Assembly (NCBI GenBank): GCA_004299495.1
Contig: SCPY01000269.1
Coordinates: 1-36,728 of the forward strand
DNA from: a bacterium
GTDB taxonomy: Bacteria > Omnitrophota > Gorgyraeia > Gygaellales > UBA12090
Direction: 5' to 3'
Length of the DNA: 36,728 nt
Position numbers and translations under genes: made by a program
Notes under the pieces: model-generated
Seen by the model: only the letters and a program-made list of their open reading frames with translations
Databases searched by the model: none
What the model was told of the DNA's origin: nothing
Part shown: positions 2,712 to 35,726 of the stretch, piece after piece
Layout of the letters: each line of letters begins with the position of its first letter
Numbering within the stretch: the first letter of the stretch is position 1

Positions 2712-3981
2712 GGTTGAGAAGGCTCAATGCCTAAAGGGAAAAGTTAAGGCCTCGCCTTCTAAGTCCTATACGATAAGAGCGATTGCCTGCGCCGCGCTTT
2801 CCGGCAGCGCAAAAATTATAAATCCCCTTATTTCAGAAGATACCCAAGCCGCGATAGTGGCTTTCGGGAATCTGGGAGCGTTGATAAAAAAGAGAGGAAA
2901 TACCCTTAAGGTAAAAGGCTTTGGCGCAAGGCCGTCTTTGGCCGGTGAGGTAAATGTGGGAGAGTCAGGGACCCTCCTGCGTCTGATTCTGCCTATTATC
3001 GCTTTAGGGAAAGGAAGATTCTTGGTGCGCGGAGAGGGCACTTTACTTAAGCGGCCCCATAAAGCGATAGCGGAGGTTTTATTGTCTCTGGGAGCGCGTA
3101 TTCAAGGCAAAGACAGCGAATTCCGGCTTCCTCTGCGTATTGACGGCAGGGGGGGGCTTGGCGGCGGAAAGGTCAAAGTGAGCGGACAGATGAGTTCGCA
3201 GGCGATTTCCTCCCTCTTAACCGTGGCGCCTCTCGCCGTACATGATGTGGAACTCGTGGTTAAGGACAGGGTAGTCTCCGCGCCATACATTGATATCACT
3301 TTAAACGTGCTTAAGCGCTTCGGGATAAAGGTGAAAAGGCAGGGATACAAAAGATTCTTCATCAAAGCTCCGCAAATTTATGAACCCAAAGAGGATTTTA
3401 TAATTCACGGAGATTATTCTTCAGCGGCATTTTTAATCGCCGCGGGATGCCTGGTTGAGTCGGATATTACCATAACCGATCTGGTCAAAGACAGCCAGGG
3501 CGACAGGAACATTATTCAGATTCTTAACAGTATGGGCGCGAAGATAATTCATGCCAATGGTTGCGCGCGTATCCGGGGCCCTTTTAATCTTAAGGGCAGG
3601 GATATTGATTGTTCCGATACCCCTGATTTGGTGCCTATCCTGGCGGTGGCAGGCTGTTTTGCCAAAGGCAAAACAAGGATACGTAATATCAGCCATCTGG
3701 CGTATAAGGAAAGCGATAGAATCCAGGCCCCCGCAGGCGAACTCAGGAAATTAGGGGCCAATATCCGCGCAGGCGCGGATTCCTTAATCATAGAAGAATC
3801 CGGTTTAAGGCCCGCGGTAGTGAGCGGCTGTAATGACCACAGAATAGCCATGGCCCTGGCGGTGTGCGGTTTAAGAATAGGCGGGATAGCCATTAAAGGC
3901 GTTGATTGCGTCAATAAGTCTTATCCCCGCTTTATCCCGGATATGGAATCGCTGGGCGCGAGATTTATTATTAAGAATTGA
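2674..3981 (+). CDS. aroA: 3-phosphoshikimate 1-carboxyvinyltransferase (EPSP synthase)
   Basis: SPSKSYTIRA, GESGTLLRL, DHRIAMALAV and VNKSYPRF motifs. The start could instead be the ATG at 2689. Confidence 0.9.
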   Translation: MKRGLMKKEGLLRVEKAQCLKGKVKASPSKSYTIRAIACAALSGSAKIINPLISEDTQAAIVAFGNLGALIKKRGNTLKVKGFGARPSLAGEVNVGESGTLLRLILPIIALGKGRFLVRGEGTLLKRPHKAIAEVLLSLGARIQGKDSEFRLPLRIDGRGGLGGGKVKVSGQMSSQAISSLLTVAPLAVHDVELVVKDRVVSAPYIDITLNVLKRFGIKVKRQGYKRFFIKAPQIYEPKEDFIIHGDYSSAAFLIAAGCLVESDITITDLVKDSQGDRNIIQILNSMGAKIIHANGCARIRGPFNLKGRDIDCSDTPDLVPILAVAGCFAKGKTRIRNISHLAYKESDRIQAPAGELRKLGANIRAGADSLIIEESGLRPAVVSGCNDHRIAMALAVCGLRIGGIAIKGVDCVNKSYPRFIPDMESLGARFIIKN

Positions 3982-8816: not shown

Positions 8817-10067
8817 ATGGCATTAGGCGCAATGCTATTGTTTATGCTTGCTGGTTCATTGGCTTCTTATGCCAGCGATGGCCAAGAACTGATACAGGCA
8901 GCGCAAAATGGGGATATCGCAAACGTTACAACCTTGCTTGCTCGGGGAGCAGATGTAAACGCCAAACGCACTAGCGATGGTTGTACAGCCTTGGGTTTGG
9001 CATCTGGCGCGGGACATAGCGAGATAGTAAAAATATTGCTTGATAAGGGTGCGGATGTGAATGCTAATTACCTCATGACAGCTTTGATGATGGCATCCAA
9101 GGCAGGCCATAGCGAAACAGTAAAAATCTTGCTCAATAAGGGCGCGGACATAAATACTAAATCGGCTGGCAGTGATGGCCACACGGCCCTAGGCCTTGCG
9201 TCTCTAGAAGGCCATAGCGAGATCGTGAAAATTCTGCTTGAAAATGGAGCAGATGTGAATATTAAAGACAATAACGGTCATGCAGCCCTAATGTTAGCGT
9301 CAATGACAGGTAATAAAGAGATAGCAAAAATCCTGATTGATAATGGAGCGGATGTAAATGCTAAAAATAATGTTTACACGCCATCGGTTTATGCATCTTT
9401 AGAAGGACATGGCGAGATAGTGAAAATGCTGCGCGATAAAGGATCTGAGGTAAATCTTAGAGACAGTGATGGCATAACCGATCTTATGAAGGCGTGTGAG
9501 GAAGGCCGTAGCGATGTAGTAAAAATCCTACTCGCTCAAGGAGCAGATGTAAACGCCAAGGATAATAATGGCCTAACTGCCTTAATGCGGGCATCTCTAA
9601 TAGGCCATAGTGATATAGTTAAAATTCTGCTTGATAAAGGAGCAGATGTAAATGCCAAAGCAACCAACTATGCTGATGATACTGCCTTAAGCCTGGCATC
9701 TCTTGAAGGCCATAGTGAAATAGTGAAGATGCTTCTTGATTATGGTGCTGATGTAAACATCAAACATAGAGATGGTTTAACGGCCTTGATGCTGGCATCT
9801 CTATCTTTAACAAGCAATAGCGAGACGGTTAGAATTCTGCTTGATAAAGGAGCAGATGTGAACGCCAAAGATAGCAAAGGCGTAACGGCTCTTATGCGGG
9901 TCTCTCGGGGAGGTCCTGGCTATAATGATAAAGCAAAGATCCTGCTTGATTATGGCACAGATGTAAATATTAGAGATAATAGTGGCCGCACGGCCTTGAT
10001 GATAGCGTCTCAAGCAAATCAAAGCGAGACAATGCAACTTCTTAAAAAAGCAGGGGCCAAAGAATAG
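8817..10067 (+). CDS. Secreted ankyrin-repeat protein (12 repeats)
   Basis: Hydrophobic N-terminus ending ASYA|SDG, then 12 units of about 33 aa of type G.TALM.AS..GH.EIVKILLDKGADVNAK. The true start may be upstream and non-AUG (see findings). Confidence 0.9.
   Translation: MALGAMLLFMLAGSLASYASDGQELIQAAQNGDIANVTTLLARGADVNAKRTSDGCTALGLASGAGHSEIVKILLDKGADVNANYLMTALMMASKAGHSETVKILLNKGADINTKSAGSDGHTALGLASLEGHSEIVKILLENGADVNIKDNNGHAALMLASMTGNKEIAKILIDNGADVNAKNNVYTPSVYASLEGHGEIVKMLRDKGSEVNLRDSDGITDLMKACEEGRSDVVKILLAQGADVNAKDNNGLTALMRASLIGHSDIVKILLDKGADVNAKATNYADDTALSLASLEGHSEIVKMLLDYGADVNIKHRDGLTALMLASLSLTSNSETVRILLDKGADVNAKDSKGVTALMRVSRGGPGYNDKAKILLDYGTDVNIRDNSGRTALMIASQANQSETMQLLKKAGAKE
8880..10064 (+). 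repeat. Tandem array of about 99-bp ankyrin-encoding units, partly conserved at DNA level
   Basis: For example, 9621-9660 (aaaattctgcttgataaaggagcagatgtaaatgccaaag) and 9831-9870 (agaattctgcttgataaaggagcagatgtgaacgccaaag) are near-identical. Confidence 0.8.
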
Positions 10068-16467: not shown

Positions 16468-16806
16468 ATGCGAAACCTGCTTTTCAAGAATGTTACTTCT
16501 GAGGACAGGAGGCGAAAGCGGCTCTCCAGTGTGGAATTCTTTGATCAGCCGGGCCTGCATACTACCGTCAACCGGCATATGGTCTGTAGGATTATGGACG
16601 CGGGAAAGCCGGACGCGCTTCTGCCGAGGCCTACTTTATATGTGTTTAAAAGGCGCGACACCAGGTTTAACATAGAGGAATTTTATTGCCGCATCAAAGG
16701 CCAGATGTATTGCGCCGACCAGGGCAGGATATATCTGGTGCACTTTATCAATTCTCTAAGAATTCACCTCAAGGCAAGTTCATCGGGAGTCGATAAAGTA
16801 ACCTGA
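16468..16806 (+). CDS. Hypothetical basic 112-aa protein, no family recognised
   Basis: ORF with GGAGGAG 14 nt upstream (rather far). It has no signal peptide or TM helix and is followed by a strong terminator. Confidence 0.5.
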   Translation: MRNLLFKNVTSEDRRRKRLSSVEFFDQPGLHTTVNRHMVCRIMDAGKPDALLPRPTLYVFKRRDTRFNIEEFYCRIKGQMYCADQGRIYLVHFINSLRIHLKASSSGVDKVT

Positions 16807-17033: not shown

Positions 17034-18449
17034 ATGGGGCTTAAAATGATAAAAAAAGCTAACTCGGTAATTCTATCTTTCATTACGGTTTTCTCCGTTT
17101 TATTTATCCTTCCCCAGCATCTTCGGGCTGAAATTTCCCTGTCGGTTAACCCTCATGCAGGGGGAAGTGAGTTAGATTTTGGACAACTGAATCAGGTTTA
17201 TCAGGAAGTAAGCCGGCAGGTAGGCGTGGAAATCAGAGGCACTAATACGCAATATGAGCTAAGGCAGGAGCCCTTAAGCCCTCTACGAAATGCCAGAGGG
17301 GACGAAATTCCCTGGAGTAATCTTACCTTGAGAGGATTAGCCGGGACCAATAAGTTTGGCAGATTACAAGTAAACCCGGAACCGGTAAGGAATGCAGTGC
17401 TTTACACTGCTAACCAAGATGGAAATGCGGATTCCTTTACTTTGGTGTATACTCTCAAATTTTTTGAGGGTATCCGGCCTGATTTTTACCGCGGCCAGCT
17501 TAGGTTTAGCGTAATTCCTGTAAATGCCGGCCAGAGTTCAGTTTCTGCCATTTTAAACATTGTCGTAGTGGTAAAGCCGGAAACTGAGGCCGGAGTGCCC
17601 ATGCCTTACATAGAAATTACTACTGTTACCGGATCAAGATTTATTTACCTTAATTCCAAAAGAGAAGAAAGCAAAAGATGCGATGTTCTGGTAAAAATTA
17701 ACGGCAAATTTAACCGGCCTTTCTCTATATATCAAATTTTAAACCGTTTTCCCGAATCAGGAGAAGGGCAGAGCCTTGAGCCAGAGGCAGTAATGGTTGA
17801 AGCGCGAGGCGCGCGCGTAGGAGCGGGTTTGCCTTTGAGCGCGCTATCGCTAAATCCGCTGGTTATCTACAAATCAAAGCCGACCGGTGAGGCGGATAGC
17901 GGTTTTATTGTTTCTTATAGCTTGGGGGGCCATACTTCAGGCAGGGCAGGCAGGTATAGGTCGCGTATCCAGTTTGTCCTGGAGGAAATGGGTATAGAAA
18001 GAGAGCGACAGGCAATGGAATTAGATATAGAAATTGAGCGGGTTTTTGATCTGGTGATTACTTCTTCAGTGTTTGAGAGCGGGGATATTGAATTCCGCGG
18101 CCTTAGGCCGGGAGAGCCGCCCCAGGTAAATGAAGTGGTGGTAGAAATACTGAACAATACCGGTAAAAGATATCAACTCAACCAGAATATCTTATCAGAG
18201 TTAGTGGACAAGCAAGGTAACAAGATTGAGAGCAAGTATTTTACTCTTAGAACCGAAAGTATGCAGACCAAGGGGATATTAAAAGCCACCCAAAAACAGG
18301 AGGCCGGGAAGGGGGATACAGTTTTATATATTTCTGACAGCCGGGGTTCAAGCGATAAGTTTAAGATCATCTATGAATTAGAAGGCTCTCAGGATATAAA
18401 GGCCGGAGATTATGCCAGCAGGATAAGCTATTCTTTGTTGGAATTGTAG
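17034..18449 (+). CDS. Secreted protein of three tandem SCPU/Csu-pilin-like modules (putative tip/adhesin subunit)
   Basis: Signal peptide ending HLRA|EISL, then three modules of about 154 aa that share ordered motifs (see findings). The start could instead be the ATG at 17046. Confidence 0.85.
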   Translation: MGLKMIKKANSVILSFITVFSVLFILPQHLRAEISLSVNPHAGGSELDFGQLNQVYQEVSRQVGVEIRGTNTQYELRQEPLSPLRNARGDEIPWSNLTLRGLAGTNKFGRLQVNPEPVRNAVLYTANQDGNADSFTLVYTLKFFEGIRPDFYRGQLRFSVIPVNAGQSSVSAILNIVVVVKPETEAGVPMPYIEITTVTGSRFIYLNSKREESKRCDVLVKINGKFNRPFSIYQILNRFPESGEGQSLEPEAVMVEARGARVGAGLPLSALSLNPLVIYKSKPTGEADSGFIVSYSLGGHTSGRAGRYRSRIQFVLEEMGIERERQAMELDIEIERVFDLVITSSVFESGDIEFRGLRPGEPPQVNEVVVEILNNTGKRYQLNQNILSELVDKQGNKIESKYFTLRTESMQTKGILKATQKQEAGKGDTVLYISDSRGSSDKFKIIYELEGSQDIKAGDYASRISYSLLEL

Positions 18450-18529
18450 TGGTTTTAAAAGAATGAGGCGTTTTTTAAAAAAGCTCAATGGTGTTAGTGT
18501 TAGAAAAAATAAATCAGGAGGTAAAGAAA

Positions 18530-19117
18530 ATGAGAGTTATGAGTAAAGTTGTTTTGGCAGCTATTTTTGTTCTGTGGGCTGGCGCTTCGCTTTGTCTTGC
18601 CGCGGCAACAGCAACGAGGAATGTGAGGGCAATAGTTCCGACGATGAATCAGAGTTTGACCCTGACGGTAAGTAAGATTACCCCGGGCACTCCCGATGTG
18701 TGGACGCCGGCAACAGAGGTTGATTTCGGCACCCTGACCCACGATGCCGCTAACCACATCTTCAGGGGGGCGGTTTTTTATGCCATAGATGTGGACGTGG
18801 TGGACAATACCAATGCCTGGACCCTCAGCCATGCCAGGACTTCACTGAAGATGGATGCCGTTAACAATCTGGACGATAATGTCAATGTTGCTTTTGTGAA
18901 GCAAACATCAGGTACAGTTGGGGCAGAGCTGAGTAAGTTTAGTTTTAACAATAGCAATGGTAAGTCTTTTACCAAGGCTCAGCTTGATGGTGGATGGCTG
19001 AGGATTTATTATGGCGTAGCCACGGGCAGCGGAGACGCCACTGGCGTAGTGCTGGTTCCCGAAATCAAGCCCTCAGGCAGTTATCAGGGAACCATAACTT
19101 TGACTTTGACGCCATAG
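18530..19117 (+). CDS. Secreted single-module SCPU/Csu-pilin-like protein (putative major subunit)
   Basis: GGAGG lies 8 nt before the ATG at 18530. Signal peptide MRVMSKVVLAAIFVLWAGASLCLAAA, EVDFGTL motif, C-terminal KPSGSYQGTITLTLTP. Confidence 0.85.
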   Translation: MRVMSKVVLAAIFVLWAGASLCLAAATATRNVRAIVPTMNQSLTLTVSKITPGTPDVWTPATEVDFGTLTHDAANHIFRGAVFYAIDVDVVDNTNAWTLSHARTSLKMDAVNNLDDNVNVAFVKQTSGTVGAELSKFSFNNSNGKSFTKAQLDGGWLRIYYGVATGSGDATGVVLVPEIKPSGSYQGTITLTLTP

Positions 19118-19200
19118 GAAAAAAACCGCCAGAGATGGAAAATGAAAGCGGAAAGGCGGGAGGGTTTGTTTGTCTTTTAGGTTGACAAAGAGGAGGCTCT

Positions 19201-20097
19201 CTGATTAAAACAAAAGTTTCTAAGAAAATAGCACTATTAATTTTTGCATTCAGTTTTATTCAGCCATCCTGGGCAATTGAATTGCCTTATCTGGATAAGG
19301 CAAAAGTCCGCCTTACCCTTGCCCGAGGCTCACAAGAGTTTGGCGAGATTATTTTTAAGAACCCCAGTTCTCAGGCTGTCTCTATGCGGGTTTATCCTGA
19401 GGATTGGTTTTATGCTTCGGGAGGAGACGGTTCTAAGTCTTTTGCCCCTGCCGCCACAACTGACCGCTCCTGTAGTTCCTGGATAAGTTTTTCTCCGGCA
19501 GAGTTCAGCATACCCCCTAAGGGTGAGCAACGGGTAAGCTATAAGGTGAATGTGCCGCAGGATAACGGCTTAGAGGGCGGCTATTATGCGGTATTATTCT
19601 TTGAAAGCAAGGTTGGTGAATTAGCCCGTCCAGAGCAGGAGGCAGGCGCGGGGCTGAATTTGGTGGTGCGCTTAGGCGCCTTGTTTTACATTGAAATCAA
19701 TGGTACGGTAAAAAGAACGGCCGTGATTGATAATTTAAGCCTCAAAAAAGAACCTTCTCCTGACCGCCTTTTCATAGAAGCAGATTTTCGTAATAGCGGT
19801 AACGTGGACATTACAGCCAGCGGTACCTTTCATATCATGGACCGGGAAGGATTAGTTTATGCGCGGGGAGAGTTTAATACCCTGTATGCCTTTCCTGGAG
19901 ATGCGGCGGAATTAAGCGGCTCTTGGGATACCCGGAAGAATCCTATACCCAAGGGTAACTATGATGTCGTTTTGACCATTGATCTGGGCCGGGCTTTGAG
20001 TGAAGCAGGCCTTGGCCGTGGCCCGATACTTACCAAAGAGGCGGCAATAGAAATCGGGGATAAGGGAGAGATTCTTAGGGTCGGTGCATTAGAATGA
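19201..20097 (+). CDS. Periplasmic two-domain Ig-like, chaperone-like protein, probably with a non-AUG start
   Basis: The track ORF starts at TTG 19282. The frame is open from 19186 and encodes a textbook signal peptide (KTKVSKKIALLIFAFSFIQPSWA|IEL) behind GAGGAGG. The body is two beta-sandwich-like halves. Confidence 0.8.
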   Translation: MIKTKVSKKIALLIFAFSFIQPSWAIELPYLDKAKVRLTLARGSQEFGEIIFKNPSSQAVSMRVYPEDWFYASGGDGSKSFAPAATTDRSCSSWISFSPAEFSIPPKGEQRVSYKVNVPQDNGLEGGYYAVLFFESKVGELARPEQEAGAGLNLVVRLGALFYIEINGTVKRTAVIDNLSLKKEPSPDRLFIEADFRNSGNVDITASGTFHIMDREGLVYARGEFNTLYAFPGDAAELSGSWDTRKNPIPKGNYDVVLTIDLGRALSEAGLGRGPILTKEAAIEIGDKGEILRVGALE

Positions 20098-22841
20098 CTG
20101 ACAAGGGGAAAATGAGCCTGCGTGGTATTTGGAAAAAGATATTCTGCTTTACCCTGGCGGTTATCTTTTGGGGTGCGCAAAATCACCCGTTGTATGCTTA
20201 CTTAGAAATTCAGCAGTATTTGTGTGAATACGGAATTAAATTCTTCAACCAGGGTAAATACGATGAGGCAATGAATGAATTTAGAAAAGCCATTTTGGTT
20301 CAGTCTAACTATGAGCCCGCCTTACGTTATATCCAAATAATTGAAGAGAGTAGGGGTGTTCAGAAATATGAAGTCCGTCCCGAAACTAAGAAGGATGGGA
20401 TAATTGTTAAAGAATTGGATCGCATAGAGAAGAAAATCCTCTTTCCTCCCGCCGGATTAGGGGCTTTACCTCAAATAAAAAAGAAAGGCGCGCCGGTTGT
20501 GTTAAGTATTGATGAATACGCAATGTTTGGCCATCCGCTTGAGCTTCCTGAGGGAGAAAGCCTTATTCTTGCAGGCAGGAATATCCGAAAATTTTTGGTG
20601 ACTCATCCCGAGATTATCACGGTTGAGAAAAGAGGTTCTGATGAGATTATTGTTAGCGCAACTAACATCGGCTACGCTGACCTGCATGTCTGGGACGATA
20701 GGGGGCGCAGAACGGTAGAGGTTTTAGGCGTATTTGCACCCTTGGTTGAAGAGGGGGCGCTTTTGCGCGATATTGAGAAGGCGGATAATTTTAGGCTGCG
20801 TTATACCGTGGACTGGTCAACCTTTGAAACCGGAAGCAATGTGAAAAATTTCCGGCGTAGCAGCTATTACCTTAGGCACGGCATGGGGTTAGAAGGGGCC
20901 ACGCCATACGGAAGGTTTGATTCTTTTGCTGTTTTGAGCAGGTTTAAGACAAATTCTGATTTTACCTATTATACGGCAGGCATCACTGATGGCGTGTTTG
21001 GACGGTTTAAAGGGTGGTCTTTGCGTGGGTTTGATTTTTCTCCTCCTATTTATAACCTCGCTTTTCAATCTGTGGCCTTACGAGGCGTTCAGTTCAGGTC
21101 CCCCGCGTTTCATAACAAATTAGATTATACCGTATTCTCGGGAAGGGAAAAAGGCGGAGTTGTCGGAGCGCTCTCAACGGATTCGGAAAACAGGCAGGAA
21201 TCATTCTTAGAGGGCGTTAATCTAAGTTACTCTCCCCTAAAAAATCAAAACTACAAATTAACGATGCTGCACGGCTACGGCAGCGATAGGACGGATACCT
21301 TAAATCCCTTTGCGTATGATTTTATCGGCAGCCTGAATTTTAACCCTTGCGATTTTTCCTACGAAATCGCCAGCAATGGCGAGCGCTTTGCCCACCTTTT
21401 TAAAACTGCCTTGCGCCGGCCGAGACTTTTATTGAACACAGAATTCCGTGATATTGACCGAAATTTTACTACTATTCGCGGTACCGCTTCGCGCCAGGGA
21501 GAGATTGGAACGCTCCTGAGCCTTAATTATACCCCTACAAATAAATTAGGCATCCAGAGCAGTTTGGACGTATACCGGGACAGCCTTAATCCGGCCCTGG
21601 ATAATGATACCCGCCTGAATGAAGATTTTGGATGGAATGCGAATTACCAGCTGAACGAGCAAACATACTTGAGGTTTGACTATTCCCTCCAGAATCAGTT
21701 AGGCAGGCTGGCCCAATTCCGCTATCAAACCTTCGGTTCAGGGGTATATAAGAAGTTTAAGTTTATAAAGATGATTGATAGCCACTTCAATTATCAACAT
21801 CAGGAAAATGATAATTTTTCTTCCCCCGCTTCAGACTATATTAATGAAAAAATTGTTGCGGGCGTGCGCTTTAAGCTGCTGGGAGATTTACATTATTATT
21901 TCAATAAGGAGATTAACTGGTTTGATGAGAGATTTAGCGGAGTCCAAACTATACCCCATGCCTACGAGACCGGGATTGATTGGTCAAGTCCGGTTGGCGT
22001 TAGCCCATTATCCGGCACATTTCGATTGAGTTTTCGCGATGAGGAGGATACTGTTTCCAATTTAAGTTTTTTCAGCGGAGAGGATTTTCTTGAAACTTAT
22101 TTAGAATTAGCTTACCGGCCGCATGATGGGATGGAGCTATTCGGCTCTTGTCGTTTTCGCAATGTTTGGGCCGAAAGCCCCCGGGTGAATGCCCGTATGG
22201 AGGCTACCTTTAATGCCGGGATGCGCTATCTTTGGGATACCGGAATGCGCTGGGAATCAATAGGTGCTATTGAGGGGTATGTCTTTAACGATTATAATCT
22301 GAACGGTTTAAAAGAATCCTATGAGCCAGGCATGCCGGGGGTCAAGCTTTGGCTCGGAAAGGAAAAATCTATAAATACGGATGCTTCAGGTCATTATAAA
22401 TTTTCCAAGGTAAAGGCGCGTAAGAGCGCGGTGAGTGTGGATACCGCGACTATCGCGCCGGGTTATTTATTGACGTCGGCGCAAACGCAAGAGTTTAAAT
22501 TAGCCCACGGCGAGCTCGCCAGGATAGATTTTGGCCTCACCAGCCGTTCTGAGATCAGCGGAATCGTATTTGATGATATTAACAGAGATGGGAAGTTAAG
22601 CCAGAAAGAGCCTGGAGTTAAGGGCGTGATTATAACTATAGAAGACGGCACAAAAGCAGTAACTGATGATTTAGGAAGATATTTCTTTAGAAAGGCCAAG
22701 ACCGGAAAACACAGGCTCGCTTTGGATATTGACAGCCTGCCCGCGACATACCTGCCAGCAGTTTCTATCTATAGAGAGGTTGAGCTTTCCGAGGGAACAA
22801 GCTTTAAGTATGATATACCCTTAAAGAGGATTGAGAAATAG
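20094..22841 (+). CDS. Outer-membrane assembly/export protein: TPR-like + pilus-N-like domain + large beta-barrel + two SdrD-B/CarboxypepD_reg-like domains
   Basis: ATGA overlap with the upstream gene and a signal peptide. Residues about 136-213 resemble the CpaC-type pilus N-terminal domain. Residues about 232-720 have amphipathic Y/F/W-rich strands. Residues 725-912 hold two copies of G.VF.D.N.NG..(D/E)..E.G..GV. Confidence 0.9.
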   Translation: MTDKGKMSLRGIWKKIFCFTLAVIFWGAQNHPLYAYLEIQQYLCEYGIKFFNQGKYDEAMNEFRKAILVQSNYEPALRYIQIIEESRGVQKYEVRPETKKDGIIVKELDRIEKKILFPPAGLGALPQIKKKGAPVVLSIDEYAMFGHPLELPEGESLILAGRNIRKFLVTHPEIITVEKRGSDEIIVSATNIGYADLHVWDDRGRRTVEVLGVFAPLVEEGALLRDIEKADNFRLRYTVDWSTFETGSNVKNFRRSSYYLRHGMGLEGATPYGRFDSFAVLSRFKTNSDFTYYTAGITDGVFGRFKGWSLRGFDFSPPIYNLAFQSVALRGVQFRSPAFHNKLDYTVFSGREKGGVVGALSTDSENRQESFLEGVNLSYSPLKNQNYKLTMLHGYGSDRTDTLNPFAYDFIGSLNFNPCDFSYEIASNGERFAHLFKTALRRPRLLLNTEFRDIDRNFTTIRGTASRQGEIGTLLSLNYTPTNKLGIQSSLDVYRDSLNPALDNDTRLNEDFGWNANYQLNEQTYLRFDYSLQNQLGRLAQFRYQTFGSGVYKKFKFIKMIDSHFNYQHQENDNFSSPASDYINEKIVAGVRFKLLGDLHYYFNKEINWFDERFSGVQTIPHAYETGIDWSSPVGVSPLSGTFRLSFRDEEDTVSNLSFFSGEDFLETYLELAYRPHDGMELFGSCRFRNVWAESPRVNARMEATFNAGMRYLWDTGMRWESIGAIEGYVFNDYNLNGLKESYEPGMPGVKLWLGKEKSINTDASGHYKFSKVKARKSAVSVDTATIAPGYLLTSAQTQEFKLAHGELARIDFGLTSRSEISGIVFDDINRDGKLSQKEPGVKGVIITIEDGTKAVTDDLGRYFFRKAKTGKHRLALDIDSLPATYLPAVSIYREVELSEGTSFKYDIPLKRIEK

Positions 22842-22880: not shown

Positions 22881-23198
22881 TTATCTATTGTAAATGGTTT
22901 TTACCAACACAAGGACGGAATTCTCTCCTTGTTCTGTTGTTTTTGCCTCTTGCGCGTCCTCTGTAATAACATAAGAGGCCTCTTGTTGATTTTCCCGCTG
23001 AATAGTTATATCCATTTCTCTTGGGGCGGGTTTTTGTTCCTCTATGAGCTGTTTTTCATCAGGCGCGGCATTTACTCCCGGTATAGCCGGTATGGTACAG
23101 GAAACGCCTAAGGTTTGGGCATTGCTTTGCGCAAACGTAATTGTCTGCACCAATAATATAGGTAACAAAGCCATTAATATCGCCAGGGAATTCTTCAT
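22881..23198 (-). CDS. Small secreted acidic protein (105 aa), unknown family
   Basis: The only credible minus-strand gene. AGAGGAGG lies 8 nt upstream of the ATG. Signal peptide MKNSLAILMALLPILLVQTITFAQSNA, then an E/Q-rich region and the terminal strand SVLVLVKTIYNR. Confidence 0.7.
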   Translation of the reverse strand: MKNSLAILMALLPILLVQTITFAQSNAQTLGVSCTIPAIPGVNAAPDEKQLIEEQKPAPREMDITIQRENQQEASYVITEDAQEAKTTEQGENSVLVLVKTIYNR

Positions 23199-32397: not shown

Positions 32398-33732
32398 ATG
32401 CCATTATCAGGATTGGATATTTATAAGCTTCTTCCTAAAACCAATTGCCGCGAATGCGGTTTCCCCACTTGCCTTGCCTTCGCGCTTTCATTGGCCAAGA
32501 AGGCGGTGTCCCTGGAGAAATGCCCTTATGTAAGCGAGACGGCAAAACAGGCACTTGAGGCGCAATCCCAGCCGCCTATACGGCTTGTGCGTATAGGCGA
32601 TGACGAAAATAAGGTGGAGGTGGGAAACGAAACCGTGATGTTCAGGCATGAAGAGAAATTTCACCATCCCGCCGCTATTGGGTTTATTATTGAAGACAGC
32701 CTTTCTGATGAGGAGATAAAACGCCGCCTTGAAGCAATTCGCTCTTTGCAGTTTGAGCGCGTGGGCCAGCCCTTAAAGACCGACCTGGTTGCCGTAAAGC
32801 AGTCTAAGGACGCAAAGAGGTTTGCTCAGGCAGTTTCCCTGGTAACCTCTCTGACCAAATCCGGGATAGTATTAATGAGCGAAGATGCCTCTGCTTTAAA
32901 GGAAGCCTTAGGGGTTTTAGCCGGAAAGAGGCCGCTTATCTACGCGGCAGGCAGCCAAAATGTGACAGAGCTTGCAAAGCTTGCAAAAGAGCATGGCGCG
33001 TCCTTAGCGCTTAAGAGCGAATCTATAGATGGGTTGACTGAGCTGGCAAAGGCGGCAAACGAAACCGGCCTTACCGACCTGGTCCTGGCCATAAATACAA
33101 GCAATGCGAATGCAAAGGCAATCTGGGATTTGACGCAAGCGCGCAGGCTCGCGCTTAAGAAAGCAAACCGCCTGATGGGCTATCCTGTTGTCGCGGCAAT
33201 GCCTGAGCTGAATAGCTACGCTGAGGTGATTAAGGCCGGGGATTATATCGCTAAATACGGGAGCATCGTTTTATTGAGGGGTTTTGAGCCTTGGGCGGCC
33301 CTTGCCTTGCTTACCTTACGCCAAAACATCTATACCGACCCGCAAAAGCCTTTACAGATTGAGGCAAAGCTTTACCCGGTGGGCAATGTCAGCGAGAAAT
33401 CGCCTACCCTGGTAACCACCAATTTCTCTCTGACTTATTATACCGTCCTGGGAGAAGTTGAGGCGAGCAAGATTCCCACGTACATCCTGAGCGTGGACAC
33501 CGAAGGGATGTCTGTGCTTACCGCCTGGGCGGCGGAGAAATTCACTCCCGATAAAATCTCCGATAGCCTAAAGAAGTCCGGCGCCGAAGAGAAGCTTACC
33601 CATCGCCAGGTTATTATTCCAGGATATGTGGCGGTAATGAGCGGAGACCTGGAAGAAAAAAGCGGATGGAAAATCGTCGTCGGCCCGAAAGAGGCCGCGG
33701 GGATACCCACGTTCTTGAAGAACTTGTCATAA
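32398..33732 (+). CDS. acsC: Corrinoid iron-sulfur protein large subunit (acetyl-CoA decarbonylase/synthase gamma)
   Basis: N-terminal 4Fe-4S motif NCRECGFPTCLAFA...KCPY. Full-length resemblance to AcsC/CdhE. Confidence 0.92.
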   Translation: MPLSGLDIYKLLPKTNCRECGFPTCLAFALSLAKKAVSLEKCPYVSETAKQALEAQSQPPIRLVRIGDDENKVEVGNETVMFRHEEKFHHPAAIGFIIEDSLSDEEIKRRLEAIRSLQFERVGQPLKTDLVAVKQSKDAKRFAQAVSLVTSLTKSGIVLMSEDASALKEALGVLAGKRPLIYAAGSQNVTELAKLAKEHGASLALKSESIDGLTELAKAANETGLTDLVLAINTSNANAKAIWDLTQARRLALKKANRLMGYPVVAAMPELNSYAEVIKAGDYIAKYGSIVLLRGFEPWAALALLTLRQNIYTDPQKPLQIEAKLYPVGNVSEKSPTLVTTNFSLTYYTVLGEVEASKIPTYILSVDTEGMSVLTAWAAEKFTPDKISDSLKKSGAEEKLTHRQVIIPGYVAVMSGDLEEKSGWKIVVGPKEAAGIPTFLKNLS

Positions 33733-33747
33733 ATTAAGATTTTGCTT

Positions 33748-33770
33748 CCTTGCCTTCAGGCAGGGTTTTT
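33748..33770 (+). terminator. Rho-independent terminator-like hairpin after acsC
   Basis: CCTTGCC-ttca-GGCAGGG (7 bp including one G-U) followed by TTTTT. Confidence 0.5.
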
Positions 33771-33788
33771 AAATTTTAAATTTACAAG

Positions 33789-35726
33789 ATGGATAAATTC
33801 AAAGTATTATTTCTGCCGGATAATAAAATAATTGAAGCGGAGAAAGGCAAGACTATACTTTCCGCGGCTATTTCCGCCGGTATTCATATCAATTCCAGCT
33901 GCGGAGGAGACGGTGTCTGCGGCAGATGCAAGATTATTTTAAAGAAGGGTCAGTTATCCAGCCAGCCCACGGGAAGGATCACTTCCGAAGAGAAAAGAGG
34001 CGGATATTATCTTGCCTGCCTAAGCGTTGCCCAATCTGACGCGGAAGTTGAGATCCCGAAGGAATCCCGCCTTGACTCCGGCACTATCACCGAAGAAGAC
34101 GCCTATATGCTGCGGCTGAAGGGGATTTATTCGGAAGTAGTAGATATTGAGCGCGGAGAATCTATTTTGCCGGAGGAGCTTTTTATACATTCCCCCCTGG
34201 CGACAAAGCTTTATTTAGACCTCCCCAAGCCGAACCTTGAAGATAAGCTCAGCGATTTAGAGCGGATATACCGCCAGATTCGCTTAATCCAGGATATCCC
34301 TGTGCTTCAGACCGGGCTGTCCAATATCAGGCGGCTGGGCGCGCTTTTACATTCATCCGGATGGAAGATTACCGTAACCCTGGGTAAGCGCAACGGCACT
34401 ACCGAAATAGTGCTGATTGAGCCGGGAGATACTTCGGAAAAGAATTTTGGTTTTGCCTTTGATATAGGCACTACCACCATTTCCGGCCAGCTTATTGATT
34501 TGAATACCAAGAAAATTTTAGGCACCAAGGCGGCGTTCAACAAGCAGGCAAGCTTCGGCGCGGATGTTATTACCCGGATAATCTTCGCGCGGGAAGAGAA
34601 TGGCTTAGAAAAGCTGCACCACGCGGTAATTGACGAGATGAACATTATGATTCAGGAGCTGGCCCGGGAAAATAACGTTGACTTAAACGATGTTACCTGC
34701 TGTTTGTGCGCGGGCAATACCACAATGATTCACCTTTTATTGCGCGTTGACCCTACCTATATAAGGAGAGAGCCGTATGTGCCTACCGCTAATTTTGTCC
34801 CGGTAATCCGCGCGGCAGAGGCGGGAATCAAGATAAACCCGCGCGGGCTTCTGGATTGCGTTCCGGGGATTTCCAGCTATGTGGGAGGGGACCTTACCGC
34901 GGGAGCGCTTGCCTGCGGAATGGATAAGACCGAGAAGTTAAGCCTGCTTATTGATATCGGCACCAATGGAGAAATAGTCCTGGGAAATAAGGATTGGCTG
35001 ATTTCCTGCGCTGCGTCTGCCGGACCCTGCTTTGAGGGAAGCGGGGTTACGTCCGGAATGCGGGCTTCTAAAGGTGCGATTCAGCGGGTAAAGATTAACC
35101 CCAAGGATTTTAAACCGGAGTATTCCACTATATCGGATAAGCCCGCGGTAGGTATCTGCGGTTCCGGATATATTGACCTGATTGCCGAATTATTGCGCCG
35201 CGGCATTATTGACCGGGGCGGCAAGATTAGCCAGCGCCTATCCAGCAGCCGTATTCGCGACGGAGAATACGGCAGAGAGTTTGTGGTTGCTTTTAAAGAG
35301 GAGTCGGGAGCATCAGGCGACATTGTGATTAATGAGGTGGATATCGAGAATTTAAAAAGGGCGAAAGGCGCGATATACGCGGGGACATCAATGCTGGTGC
35401 GCCATATGCAGTTAAGCTTTGAGGATTTGGAAGAAATATTTATCGGCGGCGGCTTCGGCACCTATTTAGATATGGAAAACGCGATCTTTATCGGCCTCCT
35501 GCCGGATTTACCAAAAGAGAAATTTACTTTTGTCGGTAACAGTTCTTTGATAGGAGCGCGCCAGATGCTGCTTTCTCATCAGGCAATGAAGGACGCGGAA
35601 GATATCGCCAGAAAAATAACTTACCTGGAGATGTCTGTTGAGCCGCAGTATATGGATGAATATATGGCGTCTTTATTTTTTCCTCACACGGATTTATCAA
35701 AGTTTCCCAGCGTAAGGCTGGGTTAA
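33789..35726 (+). CDS. acsV: Reductive activator of the corrinoid Fe-S protein (RACo; 2Fe-2S ferredoxin + ASKHA ATPase, DUF4445)
   Basis: Plant-type 2Fe-2S motif SSCGGDGVCGRCK. ASKHA phosphate motifs DIGTTTISGQL and DIGTNGEIVLG. Confidence 0.9.
   Translation: MDKFKVLFLPDNKIIEAEKGKTILSAAISAGIHINSSCGGDGVCGRCKIILKKGQLSSQPTGRITSEEKRGGYYLACLSVAQSDAEVEIPKESRLDSGTITEEDAYMLRLKGIYSEVVDIERGESILPEELFIHSPLATKLYLDLPKPNLEDKLSDLERIYRQIRLIQDIPVLQTGLSNIRRLGALLHSSGWKITVTLGKRNGTTEIVLIEPGDTSEKNFGFAFDIGTTTISGQLIDLNTKKILGTKAAFNKQASFGADVITRIIFAREENGLEKLHHAVIDEMNIMIQELARENNVDLNDVTCCLCAGNTTMIHLLLRVDPTYIRREPYVPTANFVPVIRAAEAGIKINPRGLLDCVPGISSYVGGDLTAGALACGMDKTEKLSLLIDIGTNGEIVLGNKDWLISCAASAGPCFEGSGVTSGMRASKGAIQRVKINPKDFKPEYSTISDKPAVGICGSGYIDLIAELLRRGIIDRGGKISQRLSSSRIRDGEYGREFVVAFKEESGASGDIVINEVDIENLKRAKGAIYAGTSMLVRHMQLSFEDLEEIFIGGGFGTYLDMENAIFIGLLPDLPKEKFTFVGNSSLIGARQMLLSHQAMKDAEDIARKITYLEMSVEPQYMDEYMASLFFPHTDLSKFPSVRLG

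Follow-up and report, generated by a model that had tools for sequence, protein, structure and literature searches.

A chaperone-usher-like locus with a candidate non-usher outer-membrane protein, conserved across Omnitrophota

Introduction

Chaperone and usher are usually treated as an inseparable pair, and all chaperone-usher systems characterised so far come, to our knowledge, from Proteobacteria, as do the comparators used here. The locus described in this study raises the question of whether a chaperone of this kind can build a surface fibre with an outer-membrane partner of a different family. It is a four-gene operon (A to D, followed by a small gene, E, in convergent orientation) located in a 36,728-nucleotide (nt) stretch of DNA from Omnitrophota, a phylum without a cultured member (lineage Gorgyraeia; Gygaellales; UBA12090; GenBank assembly GCA_004299495.1, contig SCPY01000269.1, forward strand); this whole stretch is referred to below as the window. 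Two papers on Omnitrophota genomes (PMC10066038 among them) cover only type IVa and Tad pili, with no mention of ushers or fimbriae, and our literature searches for chaperone-usher systems, fimbriae and PF13629 barrels in this phylum found nothing.

An earlier reading of the letters alone (the sequence-only reading) had proposed an ATP-independent periplasmic assembly line for a surface structure, either divergent from or convergent with chaperone-usher pili. The general logic of that proposal is borne out by the fold and homology of C, the domain order of D and the conservation of synteny, and its either-or divides between the two components: the chaperone part is homologous, and hence divergent, whereas the outer-membrane part shows no robust homology to ushers. 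We estimate a probability of roughly 0.55 that the locus is a chaperone-usher-like pathway building a surface fibre without ATP, with an outer-membrane component that is new. In this reading its chaperone, and probably its subunits as well, would stem from the non-classical branch of such systems. Among the features by which chaperone-usher pathways are recognised, subunit, chaperone and outer-membrane genes are present in one operon without an ATPase, and C is a periplasmic protein of two immunoglobulin (Ig) domains homologous to PapD-like chaperones; homology to the ushers PapC, FimD, CfaC or EcpC was not found in the sequence of D.

Protein C and the fimbrial chaperones

As a single sequence, C has no match in Pfam, NCBIfam or the sequences of the PDB; its family comprises 308 relatives. 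The AlphaFold model of C (104 relatives in the alignment; predicted local distance difference test, pLDDT, 93.5) contains two beta-sandwich (Ig) domains in tandem, in agreement with the sequence-only reading, which had seen two beta-sandwich halves with PapD-like logic, and fimbrial chaperones are matched by structure and by profile alike. In domain 1 of the model, a low-confidence, disordered loop (residues 138–152) is followed by a long strand (residues 155–166). Fimbrial chaperones have a flexible loop ahead of their donor strand, an arrangement that the modelled loop and strand of C resemble.

When the model was compared with the PDB using Foldseek, all 50 best matches had a probability of 1.00. 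The top three were entries of E. faecium WxLIP, one of them with a WxL protein bound to it (E 2e-11 to 7e-11; TM-scores 0.37–0.45). These were followed by dozens of fimbrial chaperones, among them CfaA, FimC, Caf1M, FaeE, SafB and CsuC, with E-values of about 1e-8 for CfaA, FimC, Caf1M and CsuC (CsuC at rank 44, E 1.2e-7) and with the CfaA-CfaE complex (PDB 6k73) included. The highest TM-scores belonged to CfaA (0.45 by query length, 0.61 by target length).

Sequence profiles point more clearly towards the fimbrial chaperones. Searched against all PDB sequences, the C family profile found EcpB at E 3.1e-4, and WxLIP (EfmWxLIP1) only at E 0.26. In profile-profile comparisons with hhalign, C scored 85% against EcpB of the E. 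coli common pilus (ECP), 92–95% against a mixed set of eight E. coli chaperones, and 94% against six chaperones of the colonisation factor antigen I (CFA/I) or alpha type (90% without signal peptides), the CFA/I-type profiles having been built from seven loci on plasmid records. As controls, CFA/I-type chaperones scored 98% against EcpB and 76% against classical chaperones, and a reversed template for C scored 0.1%. Because the model, the Foldseek matches, the profile match and hhalign scores exceeding the 76% of the positive control all agree, we conclude that C truly belongs to the fimbrial chaperone superfamily, as a remote member closest to its non-classical branch (EcpB/CfaA). In PapD, the basic cleft residues Arg8 and Lys112 anchor the C-terminus of the subunit. 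C has two invariant residues of this kind in its first strand, K35 and R37, and a nearly invariant R157 in the long strand that follows the flexible loop; R37 pairs with Arg8 of FimC, in an alignment that is itself non-significant.

The sequence-only reading had also remarked that C carries no canonical PapD-family motifs. This stands in so far as C has no PapD match in Pfam, but as an argument it carries little weight: in a control with genuine components of known systems, EcpB matched only EcpB_C, CfaA matched nothing, and EcpC and CfaC matched TcfC-type models and not PF00577. Since these proteins also miss the PapD and Usher models, the missing matches weigh little, and we rejected them as evidence against a chaperone-usher system. 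The EcpC and CfaC results (ecpC at 3808–6333 of L082, E. coli K-12; cfaC at 39148–41757 of L084, enterotoxigenic E. coli) are in their own right a caution for screens based on PF00345 and PF00577.

The rank of WxLIP among the structural matches brings in the principal competing explanation, which we consider unlikely though well worth weighing: that the locus displays surface proteins without polymerising them, as a diderm counterpart of the Gram-positive WxL cluster, and builds no fibre. C would then stabilise B and A as a permanent, strand-inserting partner, with D exporting the complex or anchoring it in the outer membrane. This is favoured by the top Foldseek matches of C (all three WxLIP), by its faint profile match to EfmWxLIP1 and by gene content, one large, one small and one two-Ig protein being the commonest WxL cluster in Firmicutes (PMC10599100); AlphaFold2 modelling there has a WxLIP strand inserted into WxL (PMC10599100). 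C, however, is without the C-terminal transmembrane helix that defines WxLIP (PMC10599100), ending in ...EIGDKGEILRVGALE with no hydrophobic tail, and its profile similarity is far stronger to fimbrial chaperones (E 3e-4; 85–95%) than to WxLIP. Neither WxL (PF13731) nor DUF916 or DUF3324, which make up WxLIP, is among the Pfam matches listed for A, B, C and 51 relatives of B.

Candidate subunits A, B and E

B has 51–62 relatives, across which the two motifs picked out by the sequence-only reading, EVDFGTL and KPSGSYQGTITLTLTP, are present and strongly conserved. Its AlphaFold model (pLDDT 89.5) is an eleven-strand beta-sandwich of residues 42–195. The mature N-terminus (residues 26–41) has no secondary structure in the model, the first strand starting at residue 42, and is among the best-conserved segments of the protein. 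Hydrophobic residues alternate along it to give the motif (K/Q)T(I/V)xVxAx(V/I)P, with V or I at position 30 (88%), V, I or L at position 32 (95%), A34 (97%), V or I at position 36 (100%) and P37 (73%). At the other end, the C-terminal strand stops at a fixed position.

Similar termini recur in A and E. A carries the motifs of B three times, as had been claimed, in three domains homologous to each other (hhalign 99.1–99.7%, E 1e-19 to 1e-27); against B these domains align weakly (48%, 2% and 13%), colinearly and with the motifs in the same order. The N-terminus of A is conserved as F-x-L-S-(Y/V)-x-(P/L)..GG, its C-terminus is fixed in 64 of 65 relatives, and searches of Pfam and NCBIfam assigned it to no family. 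An alignment of 42 homologues divides E into a B-like N-terminal motif (VSCTIPAIPGVNAP), a variable acidic or Q-rich linker and a conserved C-terminal V-x-T-I-Y-S-R, with the C-terminus at a fixed position in every one of them. In A, B and E alike, the chain stops at a fixed position right behind a conserved strand. Chaperone-usher subunits, too, stop immediately behind their last strand, and it is there that their terminal carboxylate is anchored by the chaperone. For E, a role as an accessory such as a cap, terminator or anchor is speculative.

Comparisons of B with known pilins gave hints of a relationship with the CFA/I type. The best Foldseek match was CfaE in the CfaA-CfaE complex (6k73; E 2.3e-3), so that this entry provides the best fimbrial match of both C and B. 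Next came Pyrodictium cannulae, a Pyrobaculum bundling pilin, TasA and CupB6, with carbohydrate-binding jelly-rolls interspersed among them. TasA, the archaeal bundling pili and the cannulae polymerise through an N-terminal donor strand; their TM-scores with B (0.28–0.49) lie below significance, and unlike the present locus these systems have no dedicated chaperone or outer-membrane translocon. With hhalign, B scored 54% against CFA/I-type major pilins, colinearly and over the full length (reversed control 0.3–0.5%). We rejected this score as proof of homology and kept it as a hint, since it derives partly from aligned signal peptides and drops to 10% for the mature sequences. In the weak alignment, the N-terminal motif of B pairs with the N-terminal CfaB segment VEKNITVTASVDP, which is the CfaB donor strand, and the end of B, G-x-Y-x-G-x-V-T-L-T-L-T-P, pairs with AGNYSGVVSLVMTL; CfaE ends in AGQYMGNIKITFTPS.

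The sequence-only reading had assigned A and B to the spore-coat-U/Csu (archaic, sigma-type) pilins, and this assignment did not survive comparison by Pfam, hhalign or Foldseek. Of the Pfam matches listed for A, B and 51 relatives of B at E ≤1, none is to SCPU (PF05229), and DUF4402 matches just two of those 51 (E 0.64). Against CsuA/B, using a sequence verified to be identical to PDB 7zl4_A, the B family scored 0.4%, confined to a 14-residue stretch around FGTL, and the B model has no Csu chain among its top 50 Foldseek matches. It is accordingly very improbable that the locus is an ordinary sigma-type operon that has drifted beyond the reach of profile models, even though the FGTL-type and G-x-Y-x-G-x-V-T-L-T motifs of B recall CsuA/B, CsuC is among the structural matches of C, and Pfam generally fails to detect non-classical systems. 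Both the closest relatives of C and the weak hints for B point to the 'alternative' CFA/I-ECP branch instead of the sigma branch.

B was also considered as a WxL domain, prompted by the WxLIP match of C and by two strings in B, WTL at residues 97–99 and the terminal Y-x-G-x-I-T-L-T-L-x-P, which resemble the canonical WxL motifs. Pfam gave no support, a search of PDB sequences with the B profile found no WxL chain (E up to 10), and the 50 best Foldseek matches of B contain none either. A non-polymerising complex is further disfavoured by the N-terminal strand, conserved and free, that B, A and E each carry, as polymerisation needs just such a strand.

The candidate outer-membrane protein D

D consists of a signal peptide, one tetratricopeptide repeat (TPR; residues ~42–73), a PF13629 domain (148–206), an amphipathic beta region of about 500 residues (~222–722) and two SdrD-B/transthyretin-like domains (726 to ~900). 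The domain guesses of the sequence-only reading were thus accurate, both for PF13629 (E 1.7e-6) and for SdrD_B, which occurs twice from residue 726 onwards (E 2.7e-17), and the usher-like order it described, with an N-domain, a barrel-like region and two C-terminal beta-sandwich domains, is indeed found. SdrD_B was present in 21/21 first relatives of D and 52/52 of a wider set, PF13629 in 21/21 and 44/52, respectively, and most relatives carry PF13629 and the TPR as well. PF13629 is typical of the Tad/Flp secretins (CpaC/RcpA), and the D profile gives faint matches to 8jvb and 8odn. The resemblance ends there: no secretin domain (PF00263) is listed for D or its relatives, which have the N-terminal PF13629 only, the locus contains no Tad ATPase, platform or Flp pilin, and the main body of D is an amphipathic beta region of its own family.

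Across 70 homologues, the central region measures 500–512 residues, with almost no insertions or deletions and with alternating hydrophobic positions throughout. By eye it holds 26–30 candidate strands and an automatic pattern search found 13 runs, so the count is unreliable; a crude beta-strand predictor was dropped for under-calling strands. Among 1.84 billion representative proteins, a profile of this region alone retrieved 263 and no ushers. The listed relatives cover most or all of the region, all ten that were checked share the domain order of D (nine with PF13629), and the only named protein among the 263 is from Omnitrophota. Usher, Usher_TcfC, PapC and TcfC models, including the plug, are absent from the Pfam matches listed for the 52 wider relatives.

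Direct comparison of D with ushers by hhalign gave 0.2% for EcpC, 0.6–0.8% for FimD and 9% for CfaC. With single E. coli templates or a small classical profile, however, classical ushers and chaperones themselves reached only 0.3–3.6% against EcpC, CfaC, EcpB and CfaA; we set this approach aside and, because its controls failed, discounted the single-template negatives for D. Family profiles perform better: CFA/I-type ushers scored 98.9% against EcpC and 95.5% against classical ushers, each over ~600 columns. Under these conditions, a 14-sequence profile of the D barrel region scored 46% against seven CFA/I-type ushers, in one local stretch (D ~485–680 against usher ~286–449, with a core of ~585–680 against 371–445). 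This match was rejected as homology, as it shrank with richer D profiles (19%, 10% and 0.6%) and vanished against a profile of 13 ushers (<1%). Two weak parallels with ushers were noted besides: the C-terminal domain of EcpC matches CarboxypepD_reg (E 1.2e-4), and 3/52 D relatives weakly match CooC_C, the C-terminal domain of CFA/I-type ushers.

By every sequence test applied, then, D would not be classed as an usher, and it is best described as a candidate outer-membrane protein of a new family. The outcome that C and D score confidently as ordinary PapD and PapC family members was not observed, D going undetected as an usher. The same data tell against the ordinary sigma-type operon, as usher-usher similarity is easily seen across classes (95–99%) and the D barrel profile finds just 263 relatives, none of them an usher. 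Considering the components together, corresponding pairs gave hhalign scores of 94% (C and chaperone), 54% (B and major pilin) and 46% (D and usher), whereas all 16 non-corresponding pairs scored ≤4% and reversed templates ≤0.5%. This component-specific pattern is suggestive of common descent of the whole system; of the three scores, the one for C is robust.

D also bears on a further explanation, nutrient capture or uptake, in which D would be a large outer-membrane channel, A and B secreted or surface carbohydrate-binding jelly-rolls, and C a periplasmic holdase or binding protein. We regard this as improbable. Many of the weak Foldseek matches of B are indeed of carbohydrate-binding or discoidin type (CBM32, chitobiase C-terminal domains, muskelin), SusC-like transporters carry CarboxypepD_reg-type domains, 1/52 D relatives weakly matches SlipAM (surface lipoprotein assembly modifier family) and 3/52 weakly match OMP_b-brl, and the housekeeping neighbourhood and phylum-wide presence described below would suit a core physiological function. 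Yet no TonB-dependent receptor, plug or SusD family was matched, the CarboxypepD_reg-like domains of D are C-terminal and not N-terminal, and nutrient capture leaves unexplained both the translational coupling of D to C, a homologue of fimbrial chaperones, and the common N-terminal strand and fixed C-termini of A, B and E.

Distribution and synteny

The C profile was scanned against 185,579 species genomes, in which 168 stretches encode a C relative, and 79 relative loci were fetched. These are from Omnitrophota, save for a few third-party bins labelled otherwise, and close relatives of C, B and D occur solely in Omnitrophota metagenome bins. An ORF-by-ORF search (ORF, open reading frame) confirmed the conservation of synteny that the sequence-only reading had put forward as a check: the order A-B-C-D recurs in ~79 loci from different species, nearly all of those fetched. 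In loci that at first appeared to be A-C, a divergent B-family ORF was found in the gap (hmmsearch E 1e-8 to 1e-44). E directly follows D in ~43 of the ~70 loci that contain D, and several of the remainder are cut at a contig end.

Variant loci carry two B genes, and five of them (L048, L056, L057, L071 and L042) show the order B-C-A-B'-C-D. Here each of the two subunit sets has a C paralogue of its own behind it, an arrangement that suggests subunit-specific chaperones. In many genomes the cluster occupies the same site as here, between lepA-lepB-...-plsY and gatCAB. Its presence in at least 168 species genomes, together with this frequent location, suggests a core envelope feature and not an accessory adhesin.

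Additional D-like genes of ~850–930 codons lie beside or near the cluster in some loci (L002, 10523–13093; also L017, L027 and L052). Among the third-party bins that carry the cluster, L023, L033, L036–L039, L042, L043, L050, L062, L071, L076 and L081 are assigned to 'uncultured Planctomycetales', 'Planctomycetia', 'Clostridia' or 'Margulisiibacteriota', probably in error.

Locus organisation and neighbouring genes

The ORF list reproduces the coordinates and lengths of A, B and D exactly as first read, all co-directional (Table 1). The reported spacing is likewise correct, with gaps of 80 and 83 nt and an ATGA overlap between C and D (20092–20100, GAATGACTG). AGGAGG lies 8 nt 5' of the ATG of B, and GGAGG 8 nt 5' of that of E. 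Signal-peptide-like N-termini are visible by inspection in A, B, C and D, as had been stated, and AlphaFold renders those of B and C as helices. Also as stated, the A–D products match no ATPase, secretin, sortase or prepilin family in Pfam or NCBIfam scans. No convincing terminator or attenuator was found between the genes of the locus.

Table 1 Positions of the genes of the locus and of the ribosome-binding site of C in the window (aa, amino acids)
Feature	Position	Strand	Description
Gene A	17034–18449	+	ORF, 471 aa; secreted, three tandem homologous beta-rich domains (~30–185, 186–332, 333–471); candidate large subunit or tip adhesin
Gene B	18530–19117	+	ORF, 195 aa; secreted single-domain beta-sandwich; candidate major fibre subunit
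Shine-Dalgarno GAGGAGG for the non-canonical start of C	19190–19196	+	Read directly from the sequence
Gene C	19204–20097 (or from CTG 19201)	+	~297 aa from ATT 19204; periplasmic two-domain Ig protein
Gene D	20094–22841	+	ORF, 915 aa; candidate outer-membrane translocon
Gene E	22881–23198	-	ORF, 105 aa, convergent with D; small secreted protein with a signal peptide; absent from the list of the sequence-only reading

The start of C required correction. Its frame, taken earlier as an ORF from 19201, is real and ends where it had been placed, but has no ordinary start codon ahead of the signal peptide. The frame is open from 19186, and the first ATG, GTG or TTG in it is TTG 19282, which would delete the signal peptide. 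The in-frame peptide upstream of this codon, LIKTKVSKKIALLIFAFSFIQPSWA, is a signal peptide; it can be aligned with the signal peptides of homologues, in which ordinary start codons precede the equivalent segment. As no such codon is usable in C, a non-canonical start is needed. CTG and ATT both follow the GAGGAGG listed in Table 1; the start is most plausibly ATT, with a 7-nt spacer, and CTG is the alternative. C may truly use a rare start codon, or an assembly base error may hide an ordinary one. The public gene call for C (P0001, 271 aa) begins at TTG 19282 and hence has no signal peptide.

All flanking ORFs that were annotated or recognised by eye, which are part of those in the window, are housekeeping genes. 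Upstream are lepA and lepB, then pgsA-like and plsY ORFs; the last two are by-eye readings that agree with family matches at corresponding positions in a relative locus (L002). Downstream, gatC, gatA and gatB were recognised by eye. ORFs of ≥150 aa in the window all lie on the strand of the cluster, except for two minus-strand ORFs nested in larger plus-strand ones.

Between plsY and A lies an ORF of 112 aa (16468–16806, + strand) with no signal peptide and no family match; where relative loci share the lepA-plsY context, nearly all have a homologue at this position, and in most loci lacking that context none was detected. Farther upstream, a 416-aa protein composed almost entirely of ankyrin repeats (8817–10067, + strand; Ank_2 E 1.7e-86) is an unusual neighbour of the aromatic amino-acid biosynthesis genes around it (pheA-like, aminotransferase, DAHP synthase and prephenate dehydrogenase). 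At 32398–35726 the window encodes CdhD (CO dehydrogenase/acetyl-CoA synthase delta subunit) and a RACo-type corrinoid activator, on account of which the host organism probably has the Wood-Ljungdahl pathway.

Discussion

Among known systems, the locus is most readily compared with CFA/I-CS1 class 5 fimbriae (CfaA/B/C/E) and with ECP (EcpA–E), which likewise combine subunits, a two-Ig chaperone and a large outer-membrane protein in an operon without an ATPase. Homology of C to EcpB and CfaA-type chaperones is detectable, and the N- and C-terminal strands of B resemble those of CfaB and CfaE. As in ECP, where EcpD stands with EcpA, a large multi-domain subunit accompanies one of ~195 residues; some Omnitrophota loci have two chaperone genes, as ECP has ecpE beside ecpB, next to the adhesin gene ecpD; and the C-terminal domains of both EcpC and D give CarboxypepD_reg-type signals. 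The differences are substantial. D is no detectable usher, with a TPR and a Tad-secretin-type domain in place of the usher N-terminal domain; C is ~70 residues longer than fimbrial chaperones, A has three tandem repeats, and B is ~25 residues longer than CfaB, with sub-threshold similarity to it; the host belongs to Omnitrophota and not Proteobacteria, and the small gene E is without counterpart. The other systems are further removed. Csu and spore-coat-U fimbriae share short motifs with B (FGTL and a C-terminal G-x-Y-x-x-T-L-x-V-T) as well as CsuC as a structural match of C, but A and B have no family-level similarity to SCPU or CsuA/B, and the locus has no usher. With the Firmicutes WxL clusters the locus shares the gene set and the best structural match of C; it differs from them in having no detectable WxL domain in A (by sequence) or B (by sequence and structure), no transmembrane helix in C, and, in its diderm host, an additional outer-membrane protein.

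If the locus does build a fibre, assembly might proceed as follows. A, B and probably E would be exported by Sec and their signal peptides cleaved. In the periplasm, C would capture each subunit by donor-strand complementation, completing the subunit beta-sandwich with its own strand after loop 138–152 and holding the invariant-length C-terminus of the subunit. D, translationally coupled to C, would receive the subunits from it: the periplasmic TPR and Tad-secretin-type N domain would dock the complexes, the beta region of ~500 residues would form the pore, and the two transthyretin-like C-terminal domains would act like CTD1 and CTD2, the C-terminal domains of an usher. At D, donor-strand exchange would take place, the N-terminal strand of an incoming subunit displacing the chaperone strand in the previous one, and the fibre would grow outward. 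In B, the exchanging strand would be the (K/Q)T(I/V)xVxAx(V/I)P segment, which is close to its counterpart in CfaB. B would make up the shaft and A, with its three B-like domains, the tip or an adhesive part, while E, which carries the strand motif without a domain, may serve as a cap or anchor.

Several observations weigh against a fibre assembled in this way. The best structural match of C is WxLIP, the partner of non-polymerising Gram-positive surface proteins. The structural matches of B are weak (best E 2.3e-3, TM-scores 0.25–0.49) and include jelly-rolls, and its score against CFA/I-type pilins falls once signal peptides are removed. A is made of complete tandem domains, which is atypical for a simple pilin. 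The barrel nature of D is read solely from a sequence pattern, and its apparent similarity to CFA/I-type ushers diminishes as the D profiles become richer. Finally, the housekeeping setting could also suit a structural envelope component that is not a pilus. Of the alternatives, a WxL-like complex is the main rival, nutrient capture is weaker, and an ordinary sigma-type operon is essentially excluded.

The chaperone-usher-like reading, based on sequence analysis and two monomer models, would make this a system of chaperone-usher type whose outer-membrane partner is not an usher, conserved throughout a candidate phylum, and new in that a remote chaperone homologue is joined to an outer-membrane protein of a different family. 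More tentatively, Omnitrophota may hold a phylum-wide, anciently diverged branch of donor-strand chaperones, with a homologous chaperone and pilin-like subunits, intermediate in structure to WxLIP, in which the usher has been replaced by an unrelated barrel family with Tad-secretin-type docking and transthyretin-like C-terminal domains. Were this replacement real, it would constitute a new class of fibre-secretion machine, and the chaperone-subunit module would be older and more portable than the usher.

Proteins of the locus that were 'hypothetical' can now receive testable roles. If a fibre is built, a donor-strand chaperone module would be seen to work with a pore that is not an usher, and a link would be drawn between the fimbrial chaperones of diderms and the WxLIP proteins of Gram-positive bacteria. 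For Omnitrophota, a group thought to rely on host contact, the locus would provide a third appendage, assembled without ATP.

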